From: Mariniphaga sp.
GTDB taxonomy: Bacteria > Bacteroidota > Bacteroidia > Bacteroidales > Prolixibacteraceae
DNA: 64,000 nucleotides
Assembly (NCBI GenBank): GCA_037133495.1
Contig: JBAXOA010000009.1
Location: 1,191 to 65,190 of the forward strand
Reading direction: 5' to 3'
Part shown: one piece after another, positions 3,361-43,883 of the stretch
Position numbering within the stretch: position 1 is the first letter of the stretch
How the letters are laid out: each line of letters starts with the position of its first letter
Position numbers and translations under genes: made by a program
The notes under the pieces: model-generated
Database searches by the model: none
What the model was told of the DNA's origin: nothing
Seen by the model: the letters and a program-made list of their open reading frames with translations, nothing else

Positions 3361-5110
3361 TGGGATTGCCGACATTAGCTTTCTTTTTGATTTGCTTTTC
3401 TATCACTACAATTAATTCGTCCTTTTTTATTGGTTTCGCAATATAATCATTACAACCGGCTTCAATTGCCTTTTCACGGTCGCCTGAAAGACCAAAAGCA
3501 GTCTGCGCAATTATAATAACATCTTTATTAAATTTTCGTATTTGCCGGGTAGCATCATATCCATTTAAACCCGGCATTTGAATATCCATAAGGATTAAAT
3601 CAATGTCCGGGTTTTGGAGACAGATTTCGACGGTTGCAATGCCTGTTCTTGATTCTAGTATTTCCTTGCTGTAAGGTTTCATTGCTATTGACATCAAAAT
3701 TTCCGATGTTTCATCGTCCTCGGCAATTAATATTTTTAGTTTCCCTAAGCTATTTTTTGTTTCAGTGTCTTTAACAGGCTTCAGATCTGTAATTTTATCT
3801 TTCGGGAAAGGGGCATACGGAATAGAAAAAAGGAATTTTGACCCTTTTCCTTCTTCACTTTCCAGCCAGATCCGCCCTCCTAATAATTCGGCATACGCTT
3901 TAGCAATTGATAAACCCAGGCCGGCACCCTGAAACGCATGTATATCGGTAATATCGGCCTGTATAAAGCGTTCAAATACTGCTACCTGCCTGTTGACCGG
4001 AATTCCAATGCCTGTGTCCTTTACGTAAAATTCAAGCGTTTCACCCTTTTTATCACACCCGATTTCTATCACACCATCAATGGTAAATTTTATGGCATTT
4101 TTAACGAGGTTTGTCAGTATAGCAATAATTTTCTCCCGGTCGGTAGTGACGATGGCTTGAGCTCCGGATAAGTTTGCTTTAAGTAGCAACTGCAATTTCT
4201 TTTTTTCGGTCTCAGGTTTGAAAAAAGTATAAACATACTCTATTTGGTCGTTTATATTCGTTGATGTCCGGTTCACTTCCATCAGGCCCGATTCTATTTT
4301 CGAAATATCGACAATGTTATTGATGATATTCAACATTCGGGTACCGCTTTTCTCTATTATTTCAATGAATTCATGTTGCTCTTCGCCGGTGAGGTGAGGT
4401 TCTTTCAGTAAAGCTGCAAAACCAAGAATGCCGTTCATAGGAGTTCTTATTTCGTGCGACATATTGGCGAGAAATGCCGATTTCAGTTGGTTGCTCTCTT
4501 CCGCTTTTTCTTTGGCGATAATTAGTTCTGCTGTTCTTTCAATTACTTGTTGTTCCAATGTTTCGTGAGAACGACGCAGTTCTTCTTCTTTTTGCTTTAA
4601 ATCAGATATGTCGGTGACCATAACACAAACATCGCCCAACAGTTCGGGAGGTAAGGAGCTAAATGAAAGATGTAAATGTACTGGCGGGGTATTTTCGTCC
4701 TTTATATAGGTTAACTCAACACTGGTTTTTCCTTTAAGACCAGCTTGCAGTAAATCGTTGCATTTTTGAATGTCGTTTTCCGGGAAAATCTGATTAAACC
4801 AGGAACCCACAATTTGTTCTGGCGCAACAGACAAAAGCTCGGCAAACCGGCGGTTGCAATACAGCACAACCCCATCGGCCGAAAGCACCACAGCTCCTTC
4901 ATTCATTTCTTCGATGATGACACGATATGGAGTTTCGGCAGAAGAAATTGAAAATATTTTTTCTCCACCTAAACCGGAAACAATTATTGCATCAACTTCG
5001 CCATTTCGAATTGCTTCAAGTGTTTCTTTAGCTTCGGCCAGGCTTGCCCGCAATTCTTCGTTTTCGAGTAAAAGCTGTTTTTCTGTTTTCGGAGCTAATT
5101 TCGCTGACAT
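3350..5110 (-). CDS. PAS-domain hybrid sensor histidine kinase with C-terminal receiver domain (last gene of the kai operon)
   Basis: N-terminal coiled coil, PAS region, H-box MSHEIRTPMNGI, G-box DTGIGI…GAGLGLSI, then REC with ILIAEDD…LILMDIQMPGLNG…KP. The start overlaps the kaiB stop by 16 nt. Confidence 0.9.
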   Translation of the reverse strand: MSAKLAPKTEKQLLLENEELRASLAEAKETLEAIRNGEVDAIIVSGLGGEKIFSISSAETPYRVIIEEMNEGAVVLSADGVVLYCNRRFAELLSVAPEQIVGSWFNQIFPENDIQKCNDLLQAGLKGKTSVELTYIKDENTPPVHLHLSFSSLPPELLGDVCVMVTDISDLKQKEEELRRSHETLEQQVIERTAELIIAKEKAEESNQLKSAFLANMSHEIRTPMNGILGFAALLKEPHLTGEEQHEFIEIIEKSGTRMLNIINNIVDISKIESGLMEVNRTSTNINDQIEYVYTFFKPETEKKKLQLLLKANLSGAQAIVTTDREKIIAILTNLVKNAIKFTIDGVIEIGCDKKGETLEFYVKDTGIGIPVNRQVAVFERFIQADITDIHAFQGAGLGLSIAKAYAELLGGRIWLESEEGKGSKFLFSIPYAPFPKDKITDLKPVKDTETKNSLGKLKILIAEDDETSEILMSIAMKPYSKEILESRTGIATVEICLQNPDIDLILMDIQMPGLNGYDATRQIRKFNKDVIIIAQTAFGLSGDREKAIEAGCNDYIAKPIKKDELIVVIEKQIKKKANVGNPIIL

Positions 5111-5487
5111 ATACTGCTTTTGAACAGATGATTTTTTTTATCTTTTACTTTTCGCAAATCGAGCCCAACAAGCACGCGGTCAACAACCGACAAATCGCCA
5201 ATAATTCGGTGCAAAGGTAAGGGTAGTCTTTTGATAAGGGTTGGTGCAGCAATAATCTGTTCTCCTTTGGCTAAGGTTGGGTTTAAGTAAAGATCTATCA
5301 CTTCCAGCTCGTAACGGCCTTTAAGGTATTCCTCGCAAATTTTTTTAATATTGGCAATTGCACTTACCGAATAAGACGTTGTACCGGCTACGTATAATCG
5401 TAACTGGTAAAAGGTATTTTCTGTTTTTTCGATTGCCTGTTCAAATGCCAGAGCTTCATCAGACAATACGTTTTTTTGCTTTTTCAT
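5095..5487 (-). CDS. kaiB: KaiB family protein (copy 2, with C-terminal extension)
   Basis: LRLYVAG…, APTLIKRLPLPLHRIIGDLS…VLVGLDL closely matches the cyanobacterial KaiB core. The 3' end overlaps the histidine kinase start. Confidence 0.85.
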   Translation of the reverse strand: MKKQKNVLSDEALAFEQAIEKTENTFYQLRLYVAGTTSYSVSAIANIKKICEEYLKGRYELEVIDLYLNPTLAKGEQIIAAPTLIKRLPLPLHRIIGDLSVVDRVLVGLDLRKVKDKKNHLFKSSICQRN

Positions 5488-5597
5488 CAGAAGATAATTT
5501 GTTTTTTAATTACCTGATAGCCTGTCCCGATTTATCGGGAGAACACTTGAGTCATCTTCATTCGTGTTTGCGAAGCGCAGATTCATAGGTGTTTCAT
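5482..5597. repeat. Diverged single copy of the 89-bp repeat unit seen at 61784-62056, filling the kaiB-kaiB spacer
   Basis: tttcatcagaagataatttgttttttaatt…gagtcatcttcattcgtgtttgcgaagcgcagattcat.ggtgtttcat aligns with the tandem units. 'gg' is replaced by 23 nt (net +21) that contain the palindrome tcccga-ttta-tcggga (5525-5540). Confidence 0.8.
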
Positions 5598-5615
5598 AAA
5601 ATTCGTTTTTAATGA

Positions 5616-5960
5616 TTATGAAGAAAGCCCTTTAAGGTCTAATCCAACCAGTACCCTGTCGATGTTTGACAAATCGCCGATTATTTTCCTCACCGGCACG
5701 GGTAGTTTCCTCACTAATGTAGGTACAGCAAGAATTTGGTCTTCGCGGCACAGTTGTGGGTTCTTTATAAGGTCAATTACTTCAATCCGGTATTTGCCTT
5801 TTAATTGCTCTTCGCAAATTGCCTTGAGATTTTTGAAAGCTGTGATTGATTTAGGCGTTTGTCCGGCAACATACAACCGCAATATCCATGCATCCTTCGC
5901 TTTTTTATCAGGCTTTTGTTTTGGAAGACTTGTTTCCGAAATATCTTTTTTTGGCGTCAT
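5616..5960 (-). CDS. kaiB: KaiB family protein (copy 1, with Lys-rich N-terminal extension)
   Basis: [13 protein letters not shown]…, [21 protein letters not shown]…VLVGLDL. The start codon lies 2 nt after the kaiC stop. Confidence 0.87.
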
Positions 5961-5962
5961 GT

Positions 5963-7717
5963 CTATTTCGTTTTAGCGTCGGTGGTCCCTTTCGGTTTAT
6001 TTGTGTTGCTTGTTTTTATGACAATATCTCCCTTCCGGTTTTTTGACATATCGACCCTGTCCTGCAAAAGGAGATTTTCGCGAAGCATATTTAGTTCTAT
6101 ATCTTTTAACGTTTCAATTTCTTCTGCTTCAAATTCGGCCTTCAGAAAATCAATCTGGGCATTAATTGCCTTGCGCTTCCGATCTAAGGCAAGTTTCTTA
6201 TTTTCAATCTCCTGGTTACGCAATAATTGTTCGGCTTTTTCTTTTGCTTCTTTTGTAATTCGCGATGAGCCGGTAAGTACACCCTCAGGTCCAACATACA
6301 CATCGAGCAGTTCCACGCCATGATCGGTCAGTTTAAATTCCCGGATTTGGTTCGAGTGTGCCATTCCGCGTGATTTAAGTATATACATTCCGCGGTTACG
6401 CTCTCCGCCTAATTCAATATCGCGCAAGAGTAACCATGTGTCGATCAATGAAGAAATATCGATTCCGGTATAATCGTTTGCTCCTGTGGTCAAATGTGTC
6501 ATGAATACAGAGATATGATTGATTTTTAAAAAGTCAACCATACGCATGATCATCGCCTTGGCTTCAAATTGGTTAGTGCCTATGATAAAACTGCTCAGCG
6601 GGTCTATAACCACAACCTTTGGTTTAAAATCATTCACAGCTTTGTGCATGGCAGTCAGGTAGGATTCTAAACCGTAAAAAGTAGGGCGTTTGGCATGAAA
6701 CACCAACAATCCCTTTTTTTCCCATTGTTCCAGATCGATGCCGATAGAACGCATGTTGCGCATAATCTGCCGGGGCGATTCTTCCAAGGCAAAATAGAGT
6801 ACTTTTTCTCCACGAGCGCAGGCTGCATCGGAAAAACATGCGGATAAACTGCTTTTCCCCACTCCGGCTGTACCGGAGACAAGAACAATGCTTCCGCGGT
6901 AATATCCTTTATTGCCCAGCATCGTATCAAGGCGTGGGATCCCGCTGGATATGCGTTCGGACGATACTGTGCGCTCCTGACCAATGGACGTGATGGGCAA
7001 AACAGAAAACCCGGTTTCTTCGATGATGAAAGGATACTCGTTTGTGCCATGGGTTGAACCGCGATATTTTACAATCCGCAACCTTCGGGTAGAGGATTGT
7101 TCCGTAACCCGGTGGTCAAGCACAATGACGCAATCACTAACGTATTCTTCCAATCCCTGACGCGTGAGTGTGCCCTCACCCCGCTCGCCGGTAACTATGG
7201 CTGTCACCCCCTTTTCTTTCAGCCAGTGAAATAACCGGCGGAGCTCAGAACGCAATATAAGCGGATTTGGTAAACCTGAAAAGAGCGTTTCGATCGTATC
7301 TAATACTACCCGCTTAGCGCCTATGCTATCAATGGCATGATTGAGCCGGATAAATAAACCTTCCAAATCATATTCGCCCGTTTCTTCAATTTCTTTGCGC
7401 TCGACATGCACATGGTCAAGAATAATTTTTTTGTCTGCAACTAATTTGTCTAAATCATAACCGAGAGAAACTACGTTTATGGCAAGGTCTTTTTCCGTTT
7501 CCTCGAATGCCAGAAAAACTCCGGGCTCGTTGTATAATATTGCTCCATGAACCAGAAACTCCATTGCAAAGAGAGTTTTTCCGCATCCTGCGCTGCCGCA
7601 AACCAGCGTAGGCCTCCCTTTTGGTATTCCGCCTCCGGTTATTTCGTCTAAGCCCTGAATCCCTGTAAGAGTCTTGGGAAGTGTTTGGATTGGTGATGGA
7701 ATTTTCTTTTTTTCCAT
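5963..7717 (-). CDS. kaiC: KaiC family circadian-clock-type double-RecA ATPase/autokinase with long C-terminal coiled-coil tail
   Basis: Two RecA-like halves: Walker A GSAGCGKT and [10 protein letters not shown] pairs in FEETEKD and LEESPRQ, and [12 protein letters not shown] matching the T426/S431/T432 region. I prefer ATG at 7717, preceded by AGGAGG (7727-7732, 9-nt spacer), over the TTG at 7762 that opens the ORF in the track. Confidence 0.92.
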
Positions 7718-7748
7718 GAGATATGCCCTCCTTTCTTGGTTTTTCTTG

Positions 7749-7756
7749 CAAATATA
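7749..7756 (-). promoter_or_regulatory. Candidate Bacteroidota -7 promoter box (TATATTTG) for the kai operon
   Basis: The minus strand reads TATATTTG, a perfect TAnnTTTG, about 32 nt upstream of the kaiC ATG. The nearest upstream TTTG is only 13 nt away, so spacing to a -33 element is non-ideal. Confidence 0.4.
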
Positions 7757-8082
7757 AATCAAATTAGTTCAAAATTAATCTTAGTACCAGACAAAAAAAT
7801 ACGTATTTATTTGATATACAGTAATATATGTTAAATACTCAATAATAACAACTATCTTTTATAGCGAATAAAGGACTGATATTCTGTGCTTTATCAGAAA
7901 TAAACCACACATGATTCAATGACCCATCAACACCAGGATTGAGCGTAAAAATTGCATTATCTTTATAATATTATCGCAAATATTCGGGGATTAAAAGACT
8001 TTGTTTATCAGGAAGATTAATCGTCTTGGACCAAAAGGTGCAAAGCACCGAAATATTTATTTAATATTTCTGTAATTATCAG

Positions 8083-8143
8083 AGATCATATTCAAATGAA
8101 GATGAAAGTCAAAAATGCGACAACAAATCTTTCCTGTTACTTA
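8083..8143 (+). repeat. Conserved intergenic motif, copy A (family of three)
   Basis: agatcatattcaaatgaagatgaaagtcaaaaatgcgacaacaaatctttcctgttactta. About 85-90% identical by eye to 13183-13243 and 42397-42457. The core starts 130 nt upstream of the 8220 start codon. Confidence 0.7.
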
Positions 8144-8219
8144 AATAAAAAAATTGCTAAATTTATACTTGCAATAAAGGCCCTGTCCGGAATCTTCAAA
8201 CGTTGAAACACCAAATGCG

Positions 8220-37953: not shown

Positions 37954-39303
37954 ATGTCAAACAGAAGAGAATTTATTCAGAAATCGGCAGTTGGTGCTGC
38001 CGGTTTGACCTTAGGTGGTATGACCATGAGTGCAAAAAGTTATGGCAGAATAATTGGCGCAAACGATCGGGTTCAGGTTGGAATCCTTGGCTTTTCGGGC
38101 CGGTTTGAAGGTGCCTTGGGGCTGGCATTTCAAAAATACGCGAAGGAGATGAATTTTGAATTTTCTGCCGTTTGCGATCTTTGGAACAAGCGACGTCAGG
38201 ATGGTATCAACTGGGTCAAAAAACACAATGATACAACTCCCCTTGAGGCCCGGAATACTGATGAGTTGTTTGATAAAAAACTTGATGCGGTCATTATTTC
38301 AACTGCAGATTTTCAGCATGCCGTTTTATGTGGCGAATCTGTTCGTGCAGGTCTAAATGTGTATTGCGAAAAACCTTTTGCGGAGACTATGGATGATGCT
38401 ATTTTTGCTAAAAAAGCGGTTATTGAGTCTGGTAAGGTTGTTCAGATTGGCTCGCAGCGCCGTTCCGGTGCTAATTATCAGGCGGCTCATAATTTTATTC
38501 AGGAAGGAAAATTTGGGAAGATTTGCGCCGTTGAAATGACATGGAATGTAAACCAGCCCGGGAGATGGCGTCGTCCTGCAGAGGTTGCCTCCATTAAAGA
38601 ATCGGATACTGATTGGAAACGTTTTCTGCTGAACCGCCCGTTTGAGAAATGGGATCCTCGCAAATATTTGGAATTCAGATTATTCTGGCCTTTTTCGTCG
38701 GGAATTCCCGGACAATGGATGGCTCACCAAATCGATACTGTGCACTGGTTTTCTCACCTGCCCCATCCAAGATCGGTTGCTGCTAATGGCGGAATTTATG
38801 TTTGGAAAGATGGTCGCAGAAATTTTGATACGATGACGGCTGTTTTCGACTACGGCCCGCTGGATAATTTGGATGAAGGTTTTCAGGTAATCTATTCTTC
38901 CCGTCAGACCAATGAATCCGGAGGTACCAAAGAGTGGTATTTCTCAAATGGCGGGAAGCTCGATCTCGACACAAACAAAGTAACGTCCGAAGGTGGGCTT
39001 AAAGAAAAGTATGCTAAAGATATGGGAATGAAAGCCAATTTACTGGCCGATTATGAACTGCCGCAATCAAAAGTAGAAACGGATTCAAATACAGGAGCTG
39101 ATGCTTTGACAAATGCGCATATGAAGAATTGGATGGATTGTGTTCGTGCCAATAATCCGAAGACCAATGCACCTGTTGATGCCGGCTACAGCCATTCAAT
39201 TGCAAATATTATGACTACTGCAGCACTTCGGACAGGTCAAAAGGCTACGTTCGACGAAAAAACTCAACAAGTAATGGCCGGAGGAAAAGTTTTTAAATAT
39301 TAA
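37954..39303 (+). CDS. Gfo/Idh/MocA family oxidoreductase with TAT signal
   Basis: NRREFIQKSAVGAAG TAT motif, Rossmann start VGILGFSGR, and EKP motif (YCEKPF). Confidence 0.9.
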   Translation: MSNRREFIQKSAVGAAGLTLGGMTMSAKSYGRIIGANDRVQVGILGFSGRFEGALGLAFQKYAKEMNFEFSAVCDLWNKRRQDGINWVKKHNDTTPLEARNTDELFDKKLDAVIISTADFQHAVLCGESVRAGLNVYCEKPFAETMDDAIFAKKAVIESGKVVQIGSQRRSGANYQAAHNFIQEGKFGKICAVEMTWNVNQPGRWRRPAEVASIKESDTDWKRFLLNRPFEKWDPRKYLEFRLFWPFSSGIPGQWMAHQIDTVHWFSHLPHPRSVAANGGIYVWKDGRRNFDTMTAVFDYGPLDNLDEGFQVIYSSRQTNESGGTKEWYFSNGGKLDLDTNKVTSEGGLKEKYAKDMGMKANLLADYELPQSKVETDSNTGADALTNAHMKNWMDCVRANNPKTNAPVDAGYSHSIANIMTTAALRTGQKATFDEKTQQVMAGGKVFKY

Positions 39304-39330
39304 ACCGTAAGGCAATTCCAAATTAAAAAG

Positions 39331-39376
39331 AACCAACAGACACATTACCGGTATAGTGTCTGTTGGTTCTTTTTTA
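39331..39376. terminator. Bidirectional rho-independent terminator
   Basis: Perfect 13-bp stem aaccaacagacac / gtgtctgttggtt followed by cttttttat. The left flank is A-rich, giving a T-run on the minus strand. Lies between convergent stops at 39303 and 39539. Confidence 0.82.
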
Positions 39377-39538
39377 TGAATCATATTTTTCGCGAAACTC
39401 CCCTTCTTTGCGATTATGTTTTAAAATTCAAGAGGATCATTTTCTGCTAAATAATTAAGGAATAGCAAAATCAATGAAAATTGAACATTTTGAAGGCTAA
39501 GTGCAGACAATGAATCAAGCCTGAGTAGTCCGGAACCT

Positions 39539-40786
39539 TTAAGAATTTGTAAAAAGCGGTATTACAAGCAGCACCAATGACAAGGCAATTAAAACAACAA
39601 CAGCGCTCCAGCCGATGATATTATTTACCGGCTTGTTGACATATTTACCCATAATTTTTTTGTTGTTTACCAACAACATCATGCAAACCAAAATTACAGG
39701 TAAATAGATACCATTAAGAACCTGAGACCCCAATGAAATTTTGATCAGGGGTGCGTCTGGAATTAATATAATTGCCGCACCAATAATCAGAATACTTGTA
39801 TAAAGTATAAAAAATTCTTTGGCTTCGTTCCATTTTTTATCAATACCAGCCTCAAATCCAAAGGCTTCGCTAACGTAAAAGGCAGTTGCAAGAGGTAAAA
39901 TAGTAGCCGAAAAAATTGACGCTATGAAAAGTCCGAATGCAAAAACCTGAGACGAAAATTCCCCGGCAAGTGGGCTCAAAGCTAAGGCTGCATCTTTAGC
40001 TTCGTTTATCTGAATCCCATTTACGTGCAGCGTGGAAGCACAGGCTACCATAATAAAGAAAGCAACAACAACAGTTGCCGTACAACCCACAACAATATCA
40101 ATAATCGAATATTTGAAATTTTTCATTTTCAAACCTTTTTCAATTACTGAAGACTGCATATAAAATAGCATCCATGGAGCAATTGTTGTGCCGATCAGAC
40201 CAATAATCATAGAAATACTGCGGGAATTAATTTCCAGCTGAGGATGTATGATGGAACGACCTATCTCGCCCCAATGAGGCTTGCCCATTATGGCAGAAAC
40301 AACATACATCAGCAATGAGACGCTGAACAGAAGAAAGATCCGCTCTGCAATTTTATAGGTCCCTTTAACAACCAAAAACCAAACCAAAAAACCAACGACC
40401 GGCACTGAGATATATTTACTGACTCCAAAAACCTCCATACTACCGGCAACACCAGCGAATTCTGTGGTAGTATTGCCAATATCAGCAATTAGCAATCCGA
40501 CAAATATGAAAAAAGTAACCTTTACGCCGGCATTTTCACGAATAAGGTCGGCAAGTCCTTTGCCAGTGACAATTCCCATCCGGGCATTCATTTCCTGGAT
40601 GACAACAAGAACGATGAAGGAAGGGATTAGCGTCCAGATCAAATTATAACCATACACAGCAGCTGCAACCGAATAGGTTGTAATTCCACCCGCATCGTTA
40701 TCAACACTTCCGGTAATAATTCCGGGACCTAAAATAGCGGCAAACAGTGCAAGCTTTTGGAAAAATGATTTTCTATTCTTTAACAT
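39539..40786 (-). CDS. NRAMP/SLC11-family transporter with non-canonical metal-site residues (NRMT-like, possibly Mg2+)
   Basis: Polytopic 415 aa. TM1 reads GSVDNDAGGITT where DPGN is expected. TM6 reads GTTIAPWML where GA..MPH is expected. Confidence 0.86.
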   Translation of the reverse strand: MLKNRKSFFQKLALFAAILGPGIITGSVDNDAGGITTYSVAAAVYGYNLIWTLIPSFIVLVVIQEMNARMGIVTGKGLADLIRENAGVKVTFFIFVGLLIADIGNTTTEFAGVAGSMEVFGVSKYISVPVVGFLVWFLVVKGTYKIAERIFLLFSVSLLMYVVSAIMGKPHWGEIGRSIIHPQLEINSRSISMIIGLIGTTIAPWMLFYMQSSVIEKGLKMKNFKYSIIDIVVGCTATVVVAFFIMVACASTLHVNGIQINEAKDAALALSPLAGEFSSQVFAFGLFIASIFSATILPLATAFYVSEAFGFEAGIDKKWNEAKEFFILYTSILIIGAAIILIPDAPLIKISLGSQVLNGIYLPVILVCMMLLVNNKKIMGKYVNKPVNNIIGWSAVVVLIALSLVLLVIPLFTNS

Positions 40787-40798
40787 TACCCAATGCCT

Positions 40799-42067
40799 CT
40801 ATTTATTAGTTCTTCGTTTTTTAATCAAATCTTCGATAACGTCGTCAATTACAACCATACCTTTAAGAACATTCATCTTATCGACAACCGGTATCGCGAG
40901 CAGATTATACTTGGAGACAATTTCAGCAACTTCATTAATCTTCTGATAATCACGCAAATGAACCGGCGAAGGTTTCATAATCTGCTTAATCCGAACATCA
41001 GGAGGCGAAATAACAACATCACGTATCGAAAAAGTGGCTAATAAAATCTCGCTTTCATCGGTAACAAAAAGATTGTAGAGCGTTTCGAATTCCGGCTTTT
41101 TATTTCGCAATTCAGTCAGCACTTCCTCAATGGTAGTGTTCTGATTGAAAGACAATACTTCAGATGACATAATACTTCCTACAGTATGATCCGGATAAAC
41201 AAGCAATTCCCTTACCTCCTGCGAGGTATCTTTTTCCATTTCATTAAGCAGCAGTTCTGCTTTTTCGTCTTCCAACGCATCAAGAATATCGGCAACTTCA
41301 TCGGCCGGCATTTTGTCAAGTACATCAGCTGCTTTTTCGATCGAAAGACTTTCGAGGATGTGAACCTGTGTTTCAGTGTCCAGTTCCTCCATTACATCGG
41401 CTGCCTTTTCATCATCGAGGGCCGAAAATACTTCCGCACTTGCTTTTCGCCCTAAATCTTCAATAATATCCGCAAGGTCGGAAGGATGCAGCGTCTGAAG
41501 TTTTGCATAACTTTTTGAAAGTTTAATATTCAGACTAGAGGTATCTATCGTTTCAACATCTTCCCAAAGAATAAATTTTGATGGAATAGTTGCATTAAAG
41601 AGCGATAAAGTAAATTTCAAAGGCTTGACGATTCCAATCCGGCGAAGCAACCCTTCAATACCAATATCAACAGCTACTGCAAAAGTATCGTTAACAATAG
41701 TAACCAGCCGGACATCGTTGACCCGCACAAGTTTGCGGCCGTTGATATCGACGATTTGATTATCAAGAACTGCCATAACCAGATAAAGACTGCTATTAAT
41801 CTGATCATCAGACAATTCAATTAGCTGATCGCAAATAACCTTTACTTTGCCATTAACCTTGTCGACATGGAAATTTTGGAAGGAATAAAATGCGATTTGA
41901 TTTTTATTTTTAATCTTGATGCCATGAACAACCGGATGCCCTGAAGCATGATTTGAAGAATCGGGATCAACCAATAAATCCTTAACGGTACCAACGCATT
42001 TGCCATTGGTATCGAATGCCTTTTCTCCAATTATACGGCTTAAATAAAATGTGGTTATTGATGTCAT
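40799..42067 (-). CDS. Soluble MgtE-N domain + CBS-pair protein with N-terminal PRC-barrel-like repeats (no MgtE membrane domain)
   Basis: The acidic helical MgtE_N region (LADIIEDL…AADVMEELD…AADVLDKMPADEVADILDAL) is followed by a CBS pair (VGSIMSSEV…, LAIPVVD…). The protein ends without TM helices. I prefer ATG at 42067, preceded by AAGGAGGTG, over the M at 42106. Confidence 0.84.
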   Translation of the reverse strand: MTSITTFYLSRIIGEKAFDTNGKCVGTVKDLLVDPDSSNHASGHPVVHGIKIKNKNQIAFYSFQNFHVDKVNGKVKVICDQLIELSDDQINSSLYLVMAVLDNQIVDINGRKLVRVNDVRLVTIVNDTFAVAVDIGIEGLLRRIGIVKPLKFTLSLFNATIPSKFILWEDVETIDTSSLNIKLSKSYAKLQTLHPSDLADIIEDLGRKASAEVFSALDDEKAADVMEELDTETQVHILESLSIEKAADVLDKMPADEVADILDALEDEKAELLLNEMEKDTSQEVRELLVYPDHTVGSIMSSEVLSFNQNTTIEEVLTELRNKKPEFETLYNLFVTDESEILLATFSIRDVVISPPDVRIKQIMKPSPVHLRDYQKINEVAEIVSKYNLLAIPVVDKMNVLKGMVVIDDVIEDLIKKRRTNK

Positions 42068-42201
42068 GAGCACCTCCTTGCTTTTGGGATATAACAAGGA
42101 GCACATACCGAAGGCTTCTCTGCTATATCAGGTTAATAATTAATGTACTCGCAGGCCCCTCGTCCATTGGTTTAAATAATATTAATTGTACCGCAAAAGT
42201 A
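42068..42201 (-). promoter_or_regulatory. Candidate promoter (-7 box TACTTTTG at 42194-42201) and about 120-nt structured 5' leader with an SD-sequestering hairpin
   Basis: On the minus strand CUCCUUG (42095-42101) can pair with CAAGGAG (42074-42080), which overlaps the SD. An alternative 9-bp stem AUAUAGCAG/UUGUUAUAU competes for the UUG. The class is not recognised. Confidence 0.35.
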
Positions 42202-42396
42202 GGTTTTTTGTTCAAAGAAAAAAATCATTCTGAAATTAAAATAAATTAAATTAGCGTTAAATAAAATTGTCCTGATTTCAGGATTTGTATTGCAGTTAAA
42301 AAGTCTGAATTCAAGAGTTGATTCTGGAAATTAAGTTGTAGAAACAAAATAATGTCGTTTTATTTCTCGGTCCATTTATTTAAATCCTATTCATTA

Positions 42397-42457
42397 GTGA
42401 TCATTTTCAAATAAAAATGAAAGTCAAAAATGAGACATTAAATCTTTCCGATTACTT
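42397..42457 (+). repeat. Conserved intergenic motif, copy C
   Basis: tgatcattttcaaataaaaatgaaagtcaaaaatgagacattaaatctttccgattactt. Same orientation as copies A and B, but no plus-strand gene follows it. It lies upstream of the minus-strand MgtE-N/NRAMP operon. Confidence 0.7.
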
Positions 42458-42480
42458 GTTTTCATGCATTTATGAGATAT

Positions 42481-42765
42481 TTAGGGATTGTAGAAATCTT
42501 TGTGAAAAAATCCCAGAATATTCTGAATCATCAGACAGTACGATTCAGCCTTTTTATCTGATGGAAATAGCTCTAAAAATAAGGTAAATTGGTTGAGAGC
42601 ATCACCCCATCGCTGTAGTTTATAATATATTTCTCCCTTTAGGAATATTACTTCCGCATGGTTGGCAACTGACAATTGGCATAGGATGGCCAATGCCTCT
42701 TCAGTTTTGTTCAGCTCTAGTGCTTCCCTGGCATTTAAAATAATAAGTTCCAACTCGCTCATCAC
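42481..42765 (-). CDS. Small TPR-like repeat protein
   Basis: 94 aa with helical TPR-like pairs (…AEVIFLKGEIYYKLQRWGDALNQF…). The start (GTG 42765 or ATG 42762) overlaps the glycerate kinase stop. Confidence 0.55.
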   Translation of the reverse strand: MMSELELIILNAREALELNKTEEALAILCQLSVANHAEVIFLKGEIYYKLQRWGDALNQFTLFLELFPSDKKAESYCLMIQNILGFFHKDFYNP

Positions 42766-43883
42766 TTAAAGGGTTTAAGAAGTTTACCTAACTCGTAAGC
42801 GAGTGATCTGGTCAGATCAAACGCATTTCCCATCGCTTCCGTGAGTGGTAACGGACCGTTTGTGATTGAGAAAATACCGTCAAAAAGGAAGGAAGCTTCC
42901 TGCTTGACGGTACCGCCAATGGCTATGACCGGAATTTTGGCCTGTCGCGCGGCAGCAGCAATGGCAGCCGGCCCCTTCCCCTGACAAGTCTGCAAGTCGA
43001 TACAACCTTCACCGGTGATCACTAAATCACAATTCTTCAAATCATTAAACACTCCAAGAAGATCCATAATGAGTGCTGCACCACTTTCTATCCGGGCATT
43101 AAACAGAGCAATTAATGGTATTGCAATTCCACCTGCCGCTCCGCCACCTACAGTTTCAACCAAATTTTTTCCGGAAAATTGTTCTAATATGGTGATATAA
43201 TTATTAAAGCCCAAATTCAGATCATTGACCATTTGAGGAGTTGCCCCTTTTTGCGGTCCATAAATTGCAGCAGCGCCATTTTCACCCAGCAACGGGTTGG
43301 TAACGTCAGAAGCGATTAAAATTTCACAGGCTAACAGTTCCGTTTTCACATTTTCGGAATGAATTTTAGTGATCTGAATCAAGCCTCCACCTCCTTCCAT
43401 TACTTCATCACCAATATTATCGTCAAGTTTAAATCCCAAAGCTTTTAACATTCCAATCCCACCATCGACCGTTGCGCTACCTCCAACTCCTAAAATTATC
43501 TTCTTTGCGCCAAGATTAATCGCTGCCTCAATTAGTTCACCTGTGCCCCTGGAAGAGGCAATAATCGGATTTAACTCATTATCTACCAATAATTTAATGC
43601 CAGAGGCTTCGGCCATTTCAATGATCGCCAAGTTTATTCCGGCGATCCATCCAAACCGGGAGTCAATGATCCGGCCTAAAGGATCATGAACCTTGACCGG
43701 TACAAAAATTCCACCCAAAGCAGTCACCAGAATTTCGGCGGTCCCGTCTCCCCCATCAGCTAACGGGTGCTTAATCAGCTCCAGCGTTTTATTAGCCATT
43801 ATCAGTCCTTCTGCGATTGCATTCGCAAAATCAGAAGCTGAAAGCGATCCTTTCATGGCATTCGGGGCAATCAAAATTCGCAT
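42762..43883 (-). CDS. glxK: Glycerate kinase
   Basis: MRILIAPNAMKGSLSA, ADGGDGT, GVGGSATVDGG and VITGEG…D.QT..GK motifs of the GlxK/GarK family. Confidence 0.92.
   Translation of the reverse strand: MRILIAPNAMKGSLSASDFANAIAEGLIMANKTLELIKHPLADGGDGTAEILVTALGGIFVPVKVHDPLGRIIDSRFGWIAGINLAIIEMAEASGIKLLVDNELNPIIASSRGTGELIEAAINLGAKKIILGVGGSATVDGGIGMLKALGFKLDDNIGDEVMEGGGGLIQITKIHSENVKTELLACEILIASDVTNPLLGENGAAAIYGPQKGATPQMVNDLNLGFNNYITILEQFSGKNLVETVGGGAAGGIAIPLIALFNARIESGAALIMDLLGVFNDLKNCDLVITGEGCIDLQTCQGKGPAAIAAAARQAKIPVIAIGGTVKQEASFLFDGIFSITNGPLPLTEAMGNAFDLTRSLAYELGKLLKPFK

Follow-up and report, generated by a model that had tools for sequence, protein, structure and literature searches.

A 64,000-nucleotide stretch of DNA from Mariniphaga sp., a member of the Bacteroidota (contig JBAXOA010000009.1, positions 1,191 to 65,190; hereafter the window, with a GC content of ~40%), contains two minus-strand open reading frames (ORFs) that lie 12 nt apart: the upstream one encodes a soluble protein related to the cytoplasmic Mg2+ sensor of the MgtE channel, and the downstream one a transporter of the SLC11 family belonging to the NRAMP-related Mg2+ transporters (NRMTs). 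It is somewhat probable, in our view, that these genes form a divalent-cation uptake operon of the type made up of NrmT and an MgtE-like fragment, in which the NRMT would act as an uncoupled uniporter for Mg2+ (and probably Mn2+), while the detached PRC-MgtE sensor would bind Mg2+, dock on the NRMT and restrain it, and whose expression would be under the control of its leader. The gene pair is known as a class, of which the window contains a Bacteroidota instance; what is new here are the predicted tandem PRC barrels of the sensor, the conservation of its regulatory ligands together with the use of the same module in cis and in trans, and a candidate leader switch resembling that of MgtL.

The transporter and the soluble sensor

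A first reading of this DNA, made from the sequence only (hereafter the sequence-only reading), had drawn attention to an NRAMP homologue with a 422-aa protein encoded 12 nt upstream on the same strand, and both the coordinates and the gap proved right. The two ORFs are preceded by a leader region of 413 nt, as the neighbouring upstream gene on the same strand ends at 42481, and the hairpin that follows them probably closes the operon as a bidirectional terminator; thus flanked, they constitute a two-gene operon. Low-scoring miRNA- and sRNA-like Rfam matches at 39315-39459 fall on this terminator hairpin and are spurious. A longer, 435-aa reading of the sensor gene (start at 42106) was rejected, since the homologues are 422 aa long and the Shine-Dalgarno (SD) sequence precedes the ATG at 42067. 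The closest locus in other genomes is that of an uncultured Mariniphaga sp. metagenome-assembled genome (MAG), with 98% protein identity, and the other near relatives are Prolixibacteraceae/Bacteroidales MAGs. The coding part of the locus and its 3' end are organized as follows:

40799..42067, minus strand: gene for the soluble sensor, 422 aa, made of two predicted PRC barrels, MgtE_N, a CBS pair and a basic C-terminal helix, and devoid of a membrane domain
41510..42067, minus strand: predicted tandem PRC-barrel module, sensor residues 1-186
41630-41776, minus strand: predicted second PRC barrel, sensor residues ~98-146, the block best conserved in the family
41192..41509, minus strand: acidic MgtE_N helical domain, sensor residues 187-292, pI 4.05, with D224, D256 and D260
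40802..41191, minus strand: CBS pair and basic C-terminal helix (IKKRRTNK), sensor residues 293-422, with D409 and E412
39539..40786, minus strand: gene for the NRMT-clade SLC11 transporter, 415 aa
39326..39375, no strand assigned: perfect 19-bp hairpin with A-run and U-run flanks, between the convergent NRMT and oxidoreductase genes

By its sequence, the transporter is a member of the NRMT clade and not an Mn/Fe NRAMP. The Pfam Nramp profile (PF01566) matches it at E=3.4e-93 over profile positions 1-356 of 357, and the NCBIfam MntH and Nramp models remain far under their cut-offs (141.6 vs 430 for MntH). Its best sequence match in the PDB is EleNRMT of Eggerthella lenta (7qia; 358.7 bits, E=3.6e-106), to which it is 44% identical and can be aligned without a gap over 401 residues; the next matches are Deinococcus MntH variants at ~5e-25, the best MntH scoring 91 bits. 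This comparison with characterised NRAMPs and NRMTs, which the sequence-only reading had proposed, upholds its view that the non-canonical motifs VDNDAGG (residues 28-34) and GTTIAPW (residues 199-205), which it had read correctly, are those of NRMTs. The clade is indeed defined by DxxG-TxxA/T in place of DxxN-A/CxxM (Ramanadane et al., 2022, eLife). With a constant offset of 24, residues D55, G58, E133, T224, A227, W229 and Q379 of EleNRMT correspond to D31, G34, E109, T200, A203, W205 and Q355 of the window protein. The DxxG motif of helix 1 (D31-A-G-G34) is thereby aligned with D55..G58 of EleNRMT, where NRAMPs have DxxN, and the TxxA motif of helix 6 (T200-T-I-A203) with T224..A227, where NRAMPs have A/CxxM; W205 occupies the position of the proton-path His of helix 6b, as does W229 in EleNRMT. 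None of the 72 long NRMT matches adjoining sensors in the genomes discussed below deviates at these signature residues, and the window NRMT is 58-73% identical to the NRMTs of Bacillota loci.

EleNRMT carries Mg2+ and Mn2+, not Ca2+, and shows no H+ coupling; its T224 and G58 residues matter for Mg2+ selection (Ramanadane et al., 2022, eLife). By homology, the window NRMT is thus probably an uncoupled uniporter of the SLC11 family through which hydrated Mg2+, and probably Mn2+ as well, would enter the cell. We infer Mg2+ transport from this homology and from the M-box riboswitch control of orthologous operons.

In the sensor, Pfam recognizes a weak PRC domain (residues 5-36), MgtE_N (residues 193-293, 1.8e-24) and a CBS pair, and the NCBIfam mgtE model matches over its positions 19-253 of 450 only. 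Residues 190-414 align with the cytosolic domain of Thermus thermophilus MgtE (2yvy, 3e-32). In the structure predicted by AlphaFold2 from a 60-sequence alignment (predicted local distance difference test score, pLDDT, 91.6), the C-terminal 236-241 residues superpose on the MgtE cytosolic domains 8gpv, 2yvy and 8gps with target-normalised template modelling (TM) scores of 0.85-0.92. No transmembrane segment was detected in the protein (the maximum over 19-residue Kyte-Doolittle windows is 1.59), nor any match to the MgtE pore domain PF01769, and the chain stops 16 residues past the second CBS domain. Lacking both the pore match and any hydrophobic segment, the protein therefore corresponds to the sensor portion of MgtE and not to an MgtE channel, in agreement with the free-standing cytoplasmic sensor envisaged in the sequence-only reading; the MgtE_N segment is as acidic as stated there (pI 4.05, with 30 D+E in 106 residues).

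The same reading had described PRC-barrel-like repeats at the N-terminus of the sensor, and these find support at the level of the predicted fold. A separate model of residues 1-188 (pLDDT 88.3) gives as its best fold match CdpB1/B2 (8qzo; E=5e-4, ~145 columns), archaeal proteins with two PRC barrels, followed by the single PRC barrels of MTH1859, the reaction-centre H subunit and RimM. A profile search of this module against the PDB returned weak PRC matches only (E >= 0.024), the fold search being more telling. Tandem PRC barrels in the sensor N-terminus are therefore supported by structural modelling, with moderate scores.

The ligands of the regulatory Mg2+ sites of MgtE have been assigned (Maruyama et al., 2018), and most of their cytosolic positions can be followed into the sensor. 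D91 and D247 of the Mg4 site of T. thermophilus MgtE correspond to D256 and D409, D95 (Mg6) to D260 and E59 (Mg7) to D224. Among 60 diverse soluble homologues, the Mg4/Mg6 ligand positions are occupied by D in 57, 57 and 58 sequences, and the Mg7 position by D or E in 54. The Mg5 site is half kept, with N388 and E412, the latter being equivalent to D250 of T. thermophilus. The most conserved block of the family is nonetheless the second PRC barrel, not the MgtE-derived part (consensus LDKQIVD..G.K.VRVND...VAVD.G..GLLRRLG), and D102, D107, D118 and R142 of this barrel are invariant in the 60 sequences; this barrel may be a binding or docking surface. Finally, where MgtE has its acidic plug helix, the C-terminus of the soluble sensors is a short basic tail (KKRRTNK, LPRWKKILKR, AWKKRLPR and others), which may be an element contacting the membrane or the transporter.

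Distribution of the pair and proposed role of the sensor

That the sequence-only reading implied the pairing to be novel has to be corrected: most members of the NrmT group were reported to adjoin a gene homologous to MgtE's N-terminal cytoplasmic domain, often co-transcribed with it behind an M-box, and either cytoplasmic feedback regulation or a chaperone role was speculated for this fragment (Shin et al., 2014, PLoS Genet, PMC4072509). The soluble family is large, with 4779 matches at E<=1e-10 among 1.84 billion representatives, of which the best 150 are mostly full-length proteins of 405-450 aa. A genome scan with a 10-sequence query alignment retrieved 79 related loci, 78 of which were informative when their neighbours were examined by tblastn. 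An NRMT gene lies directly downstream of the sensor gene on the same strand in 74 of these 78, with gaps of ~12-180 nt, so that the co-occurrence that the sequence-only reading had suggested looking for extends over several phyla, including Bacteroidota, Ignavibacteriota, Bacillota (Clostridium, Desulfosporosinus, Alicyclobacillus) and Spirochaetota. The Chloroflexota locus examined also has a soluble sensor with an Nramp neighbour and the same 12-nt gap. In Bacillota, an M-box riboswitch was found upstream of the sensor gene in 11 of 13 loci.

Within these loci, the NRMT is in all cases better conserved than the sensor; relative to Bacillota, for instance, identities are 58-73% for the NRMT and 41-50% for the sensor. 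One Bacteroidales contig (L041) carries two full units of a short upstream ORF (uORF, see below), sensor and NRMT in convergent orientation, at 5001-7546 (+) and about 10907-8248 (-). In a MAG labelled Verrucomicrobiota (L008), the sensor and the NRMT are 73% and 83% identical to the window proteins, and the upstream region is GC-rich and devoid of the uORF and of the -7 promoter box; this could reflect horizontal transfer or a binning error.

The same sensor module is also found covalently joined to a pore. About 20 of the best 150 representatives are proteins of 585-607 aa in which, according to Pfam, PRC, MgtE_N and CBS are followed by the MgtE pore PF01769. They belong to a PRC-MgtE subfamily of ~600-655 aa (for example P0152, P0175, P0188, P0203, P0282 and P0324, with genes at loci L081, L082 and L085-L087). 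The cytoplasmic part of P0188 is 58-67% identical to 418-aa soluble Chloroflexota sensors, and this degree of identity points to a recent fission or fusion. No Nramp neighbour was found at any of the five fused PRC-MgtE genes examined; that of L081 is preceded by an M-box. From these comparisons, the sensor module is used either in cis, with an MgtE pore, or in trans, encoded beside an NRMT. Since pore-fused channels carry PRC barrels as well, the comparison also shows that these are part of an ancestral channel-type sensor and not an NRMT-specific adaptor.

The cytosolic domain of MgtE closes upon Mg2+ binding, which shuts the pore. The window sensor would be equivalent to the whole cytoplasmic portion of a long PRC-MgtE channel separated from the pore, and most likely binds cytoplasmic Mg2+, presumably in the mM range, at the conserved acidic sites located between the N domain and the CBS pair. 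Once closed by bound Mg2+, it would dock on the NRMT from the cytoplasmic side and limit influx, the docking and the inhibitory direction both being conjectural; a potential-driven uniporter would thereby receive the negative feedback that MgtE and CorA carry in their own polypeptides. The best available argument for the sensor gating or restraining the NRMT in trans is that its ligands are conserved and that the same module occurs either fused to MgtE or beside an NRMT; on this comparative basis, such trans-regulation is plausible.

Several observations weigh against this scheme. At the level of the protein, the plug-helix Mg2/Mg3 sites of MgtE are absent from the sensor and the Mg5 site is kept only in part. 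At the level of the loci, 4 of the 78 have a sensor without an adjoining NRMT; three of these sensors are orphans (L021, L059, L064), and at the fourth locus (L067) a gene for a CDF transporter (Cation_efflux and ZT_dimer domains; 6705-8171) lies ~450 nt downstream. Among the 150 best family representatives, no sensor-NRMT fusion was found, the only fusions being to the MgtE pore. Experimentally, NrmT genes complemented Mg2+ uptake without the fragment, co-expression of ACP2976 and ACP2977 from A. capsulatum in a Mg2+-transport-deficient B. subtilis strain gave no better rescue, and the A. capsulatum transporter rescued Mn2+ uptake, in the manner of a Mn2+ importer (Shin et al., 2014, PMC4072509). 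The fragment is hence dispensable for transport, and substrates can differ within the NRMT clade. The co-expression experiment does not, however, address an inhibition model, as an inhibitor would not be expected to improve rescue.

Three other explanations of the pair have to be considered beside trans-inhibition of a Mg2+ uniporter. The module could serve Mn2+ or mixed Mn2+/Mg2+ homeostasis, with a sensor that responds to Mn2+ or to another ligand: EleNRMT also carries Mn2+, the NrmT-group protein of A. capsulatum that rescued a Mn2+-uptake mutant has an adjacent MgtE-like fragment and no M-box, and the window likewise lacks an M-box. This is nevertheless unlikely, given that the Bacillota orthologues, 58-73% identical, are mostly encoded behind Mg2+ riboswitches, that the equivalents of all residues implicated in Mg2+ selection in the eLife 2022 study (T224, G58) are present, and that the acidic Mg2+ ligands of MgtE are kept in the sensor. 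Those same ligands bear on a second proposal, in which the sensor is no gate at all and serves as a chaperone or buffer for metal, or as a factor for NRMT assembly or stability. A "metal chaperone activity" was offered as an alternative in the original report, where transport in heterologous hosts did not require the fragment (Shin et al., 2014, PMC4072509), and the 30 acidic residues of the 106-residue MgtE_N segment would suit such a function. It is an improbable one, however, since the residues that are conserved are the interdomain regulatory ligands of MgtE and not a generic acidic surface, and since this module is also found joined to MgtE pores, in which it is known to serve for gating.

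Lastly, the sensor could act on other targets, such as the ribosome or gene expression, by way of its PRC barrels, or other transporters, its adjacency to the NRMT then reflecting mere co-regulation within a Mg2+ regulon. The occurrence of PRC barrels in RimM and other protein-binding adaptors, the location of the most conserved block in the second PRC barrel and not in the MgtE part, and the existence of orphan sensors and of one with a CDF transporter gene downstream are all in line with this idea. Adjacency in 74 of 78 loci from different phyla, with very short gaps, and the presence of PRC barrels in pore-fused channels, which makes them part of a channel-type sensor, argue in the other direction and render it very improbable. 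Restraint of the NRMT by its Mg2+-bound sensor is accordingly the reading retained here. It has implications for a question that goes back twelve years to the first report, namely the role of a detached MgtE sensor beside an SLC11 transporter; how such a transporter keeps Mg2+ influx in check is a more pressing matter since EleNRMT was shown to be uncoupled and to lack a built-in regulatory domain. Our comparisons provide ligands that can be mutated (D224, D256, D260 and D409), a candidate docking surface in the second PRC barrel and natural relatives fused in cis.

The leader of the operon

Just upstream of the coordinates considered in the sequence-only reading, which overlooked it, lies a leader with several conserved elements:

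42194..42201, minus strand: -7 promoter-like element TACTTTTG, which fits the Bacteroidota TAnnTTTG and ends 26 nt before the uORF ATG
42123..42167, minus strand: conserved uORF of 14 codons plus stop, MDEGPASTLIINLI
42132-42120, minus strand: 3' end of the uORF, CCTGATATAGCAG, a candidate antisequestor that can pair with the anti-SD and loop
42070..42104, minus strand: SD-sequestering hairpin, formed by the anti-SD GTGCTCCTTG (42104-42095) and the SD region CAAGGAGGTGC (42080-42070), with the SD core at 42079-42073

The order is thus -7 box, uORF 26 nt further on, SD hairpin and sensor gene. TAnnTTTG is the -7 promoter consensus of Bacteroidetes; a sigma-70 promoter and terminator scan of this Bacteroidota leader was uninformative. 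No Rfam family, including the M-box (RF00380), was found, either in the whole window at gathering score or in 39000-43000 up to E=10.

The uORF recurs in most of the loci surveyed. Scanning for the pattern ATGGAY-N6-CC within 330 nt upstream of the sensor start, for which ~0.01 chance occurrences per locus are expected, revealed an M-D-x-x-P uORF in 62 of 79 loci, with copies in Bacteroidota, Bacillota and a spirochaete; a looser scan added three more. Position 3 is D or E in 47 of the 62 loci. Peptide lengths are 9-32 aa, L064 having one overlapping reading that is longer, and conservation is restricted to M-D-[D/E/S/G/A/T]-[G/D/Y/V]-P; between phyla, only this M-D-x-x-P motif persists, the rest of the leaders being unalignable. 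Variation within the uORF is three-periodic, with entropies of 0.67, 1.04 and 1.69 at the three positions of codon 3, and the Pro codon is CCT, CCG, CCC or CCA in 33, 22, 6 and 1 loci, respectively. All 15 copies outside Bacteroidota have an SD 6-14 nt upstream of the uORF, and in Clostridia the uORF follows the M-box and precedes the sensor gene. The uORF of one Clostridium group extends through the anti-SD, and the logic of the leader may differ there. Further instances are the uORF of L024 (4897-4929) and the MDDGP uORF retained at the orphan-sensor locus L021. A uORF encoding MDAGPSPSS..., with an SD and a TTG or GTG start, was also found about 390-410 nt upstream of three related PRC-MgtE genes (652-655 aa), so that the peptide motif is not restricted to NRMT operons:

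L082:2615-2761, uORF upstream of a PRC-MgtE gene
L085:1112-1258, uORF upstream of a PRC-MgtE gene
L086:1093-1266, uORF upstream of a PRC-MgtE gene

It is rather doubtful that the uORF is untranslated and that its conservation reflects an RNA structure or a protein-binding site only. Codons 1-6 can pair with the region past the uORF stop in minimum-energy folds, and ORF lengths of 9-32 codons are those expected by chance in AT-rich sequence; the three-periodic variation, the use of all four CCN codons, the survival of M-D-x-x-P alone across phyla whose leaders are otherwise unalignable, the SD that precedes 15 of 15 non-Bacteroidota copies and the switching of the start among ATG, TTG and GTG all speak for translation.

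The second element, the SD-sequestering hairpin, is well supported by comparative analysis. Nearly all the leaders inspected, whether of Bacteroidota, Bacillota or a spirochaete, form it in their minimum-energy fold, in spite of their differing sequences. In alignment-free calculations, the anti-SD:SD duplex has a mean energy of -17.0 kcal/mol vs -8.8 kcal/mol for shuffled sequences, with z<-2 in 39 of 44 loci. In an ungapped 24-sequence alignment with a hand-given structure, 75% of cells pair vs 45-59% in slid controls, both partners vary in 10 of the 15 pairs, and covariation scores 0.305 vs 0.226, with none of 500 shuffles attaining the former value. RNAalifold picks a competing pairing, in which the 3' end of the uORF, including its stop, pairs with the anti-SD and loop and 8 of 11 pairs are doubly changed; this pairing is significant in 19 of 44 loci and has an energy of -11.6 kcal/mol in the window (z=-2.0). 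The naked window leader folds with the SD closed, and masking its first 30 nt, as a ribosome on codons 1-6 would, leads to the antisequestor fold with the SD free.

Other calculations were less favourable. RNAalifold found no pair at all in a MAFFT alignment of the last 47 nt, in which the 5' arms of different clades are one register apart; the SD is paired in the minimum-energy fold of -75..+6 in 33 of 69 sequences only, many of the sequences tested folding there into the antisequestor, so that this is not a clean test of the hairpin; and the whole window leader is no more stable than shuffled sequences (z=+0.64), the local hairpin alone being notable. The antisequestor pairing, for which RNAalifold and about half of the loci give support, suggests a translational switch. 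Its short uORF and SD hairpin considered together, the leader probably couples uORF translation to that of the operon, without recourse to an M-box. Bacteroidota seldom use SD sites, and the strong AAGGAGG of the sensor gene fits regulated, SD-dependent initiation.

By analogy with MgtL, pausing or abortion of the ribosome at MDxxP would report low Mg2+ and open the SD of the sensor gene. We tentatively propose, as a possibility short of a probable one, a leader-peptide switch common to several phyla, in which a Mg2+-dependent ribosome pause or abort at M-D-[D/E/S/G]-[G/D]-P would free the antisequestor, open the SD hairpin and turn on sensor-NRMT translation, thus acting as a general translational Mg2+ sensor outside enterobacteria, including in Bacteroidota, in which this operon showed no M-box. 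If this switch is true, MgtL-type Mg2+ sensing by the translating ribosome would extend to Bacteroidota, Bacillota and Spirochaetota, and the unusually strong SD in a phylum largely devoid of SD use would be explained.

Comparison with known systems

No description of such an MgtL-like switch was found in the literature searched, nor any later paper on the MgtE-like fragment or any joining PRC barrels with MgtE. PRC barrels are not mentioned in the report on NrmT (Shin et al., 2014, PMC4072509), and the EleNRMT study leaves the neighbouring sensor gene undiscussed (Ramanadane et al., 2022, eLife).

Among characterised proteins, EleNRMT (PDB 7QIA/7QIC/7QJI/7QJJ) resembles the window NRMT at 44% identity and in all the signature residues listed above. 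It differs in having a Gly where the window protein has D29. The cytoplasmic domain of MgtE (T. thermophilus, 2YVY/2YVX; Hattori 2007/2009; Maruyama et al., 2018) shares with the window sensor the fold of the N domain and CBS pair (TM score of 0.85) and the acidic ligands of the Mg4, Mg6 and Mg7 sites. The sensor differs in that it has neither the plug helix nor the five-helix pore, and hence no Mg1-Mg3 sites, and in that it adds an N-terminal module of ~186 residues, predicted to consist of tandem PRC barrels, and a basic C-terminal helix. The long PRC-MgtE channels are closer in architecture, with the same PRC, MgtE_N and CBS arrangement over all 422 residues at 31-36% identity to the window sensor; unlike it, they carry the PF01769 pore in cis and, at the five genes examined, are without an Nramp neighbour.

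The NrmT operons of C. acetobutylicum (CA_C0685/CA_C3329) and A. capsulatum (ACP2976-ACP2977) contain the same pair in the same order and gave rise to the same feedback hypothesis. The window locus differs from the operons of that report in belonging to Bacteroidota and in having a leader with a uORF and SD hairpin instead of an M-box; in C. acetobutylicum, moreover, the sensor is split in two genes, where the window has one.

As for the leader, the closest parallel is MgtL, encoded in the leader of enterobacterial mgtA, whose EPDP sequence, placed directly behind fMet, has a ribosome-destabilising effect that is greater at low Mg2+ and switches the leader RNA (Park 2010; Gall 2016; Chadani 2017/2021). 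In Salmonella and E. coli as in the window type, a short uORF precedes a Mg2+ importer gene, an acidic/proline motif follows fMet (MEPDP vs MDEGP/MDDDP), and mutually exclusive RNA structures can form. The two peptides have no detectable sequence homology, however: MEPDPTPLP and MDEGPAST share composition only and are too short for a homology test. The output also differs, as it appears to be translational in the window, through SD sequestration, and consists of Rho-dependent transcription attenuation for MgtL. Furthermore, the window-type element occurs in Bacteroidota, Bacillota and Spirochaetota and not in enterobacteria, and its Mg2+ dependence is proposed by analogy. A second parallel is the conserved, proline-containing uORF Rv1805A, located behind a mycobacterial M-box and associated with an anti-SD/anti-anti-SD platform (D'Halluin et al., 2026, RNA). 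Rv1805A represents a mycobacteria-specific peptide family, is followed by pe20-mgtC and involves Rho-dependent termination; it nonetheless has in common with the window-type uORF a conserved N-terminus with an invariant proline and a position between a Mg2+ riboswitch and Mg2+-related genes, the order of M-box and uORF being that of the Clostridial loci of our survey.

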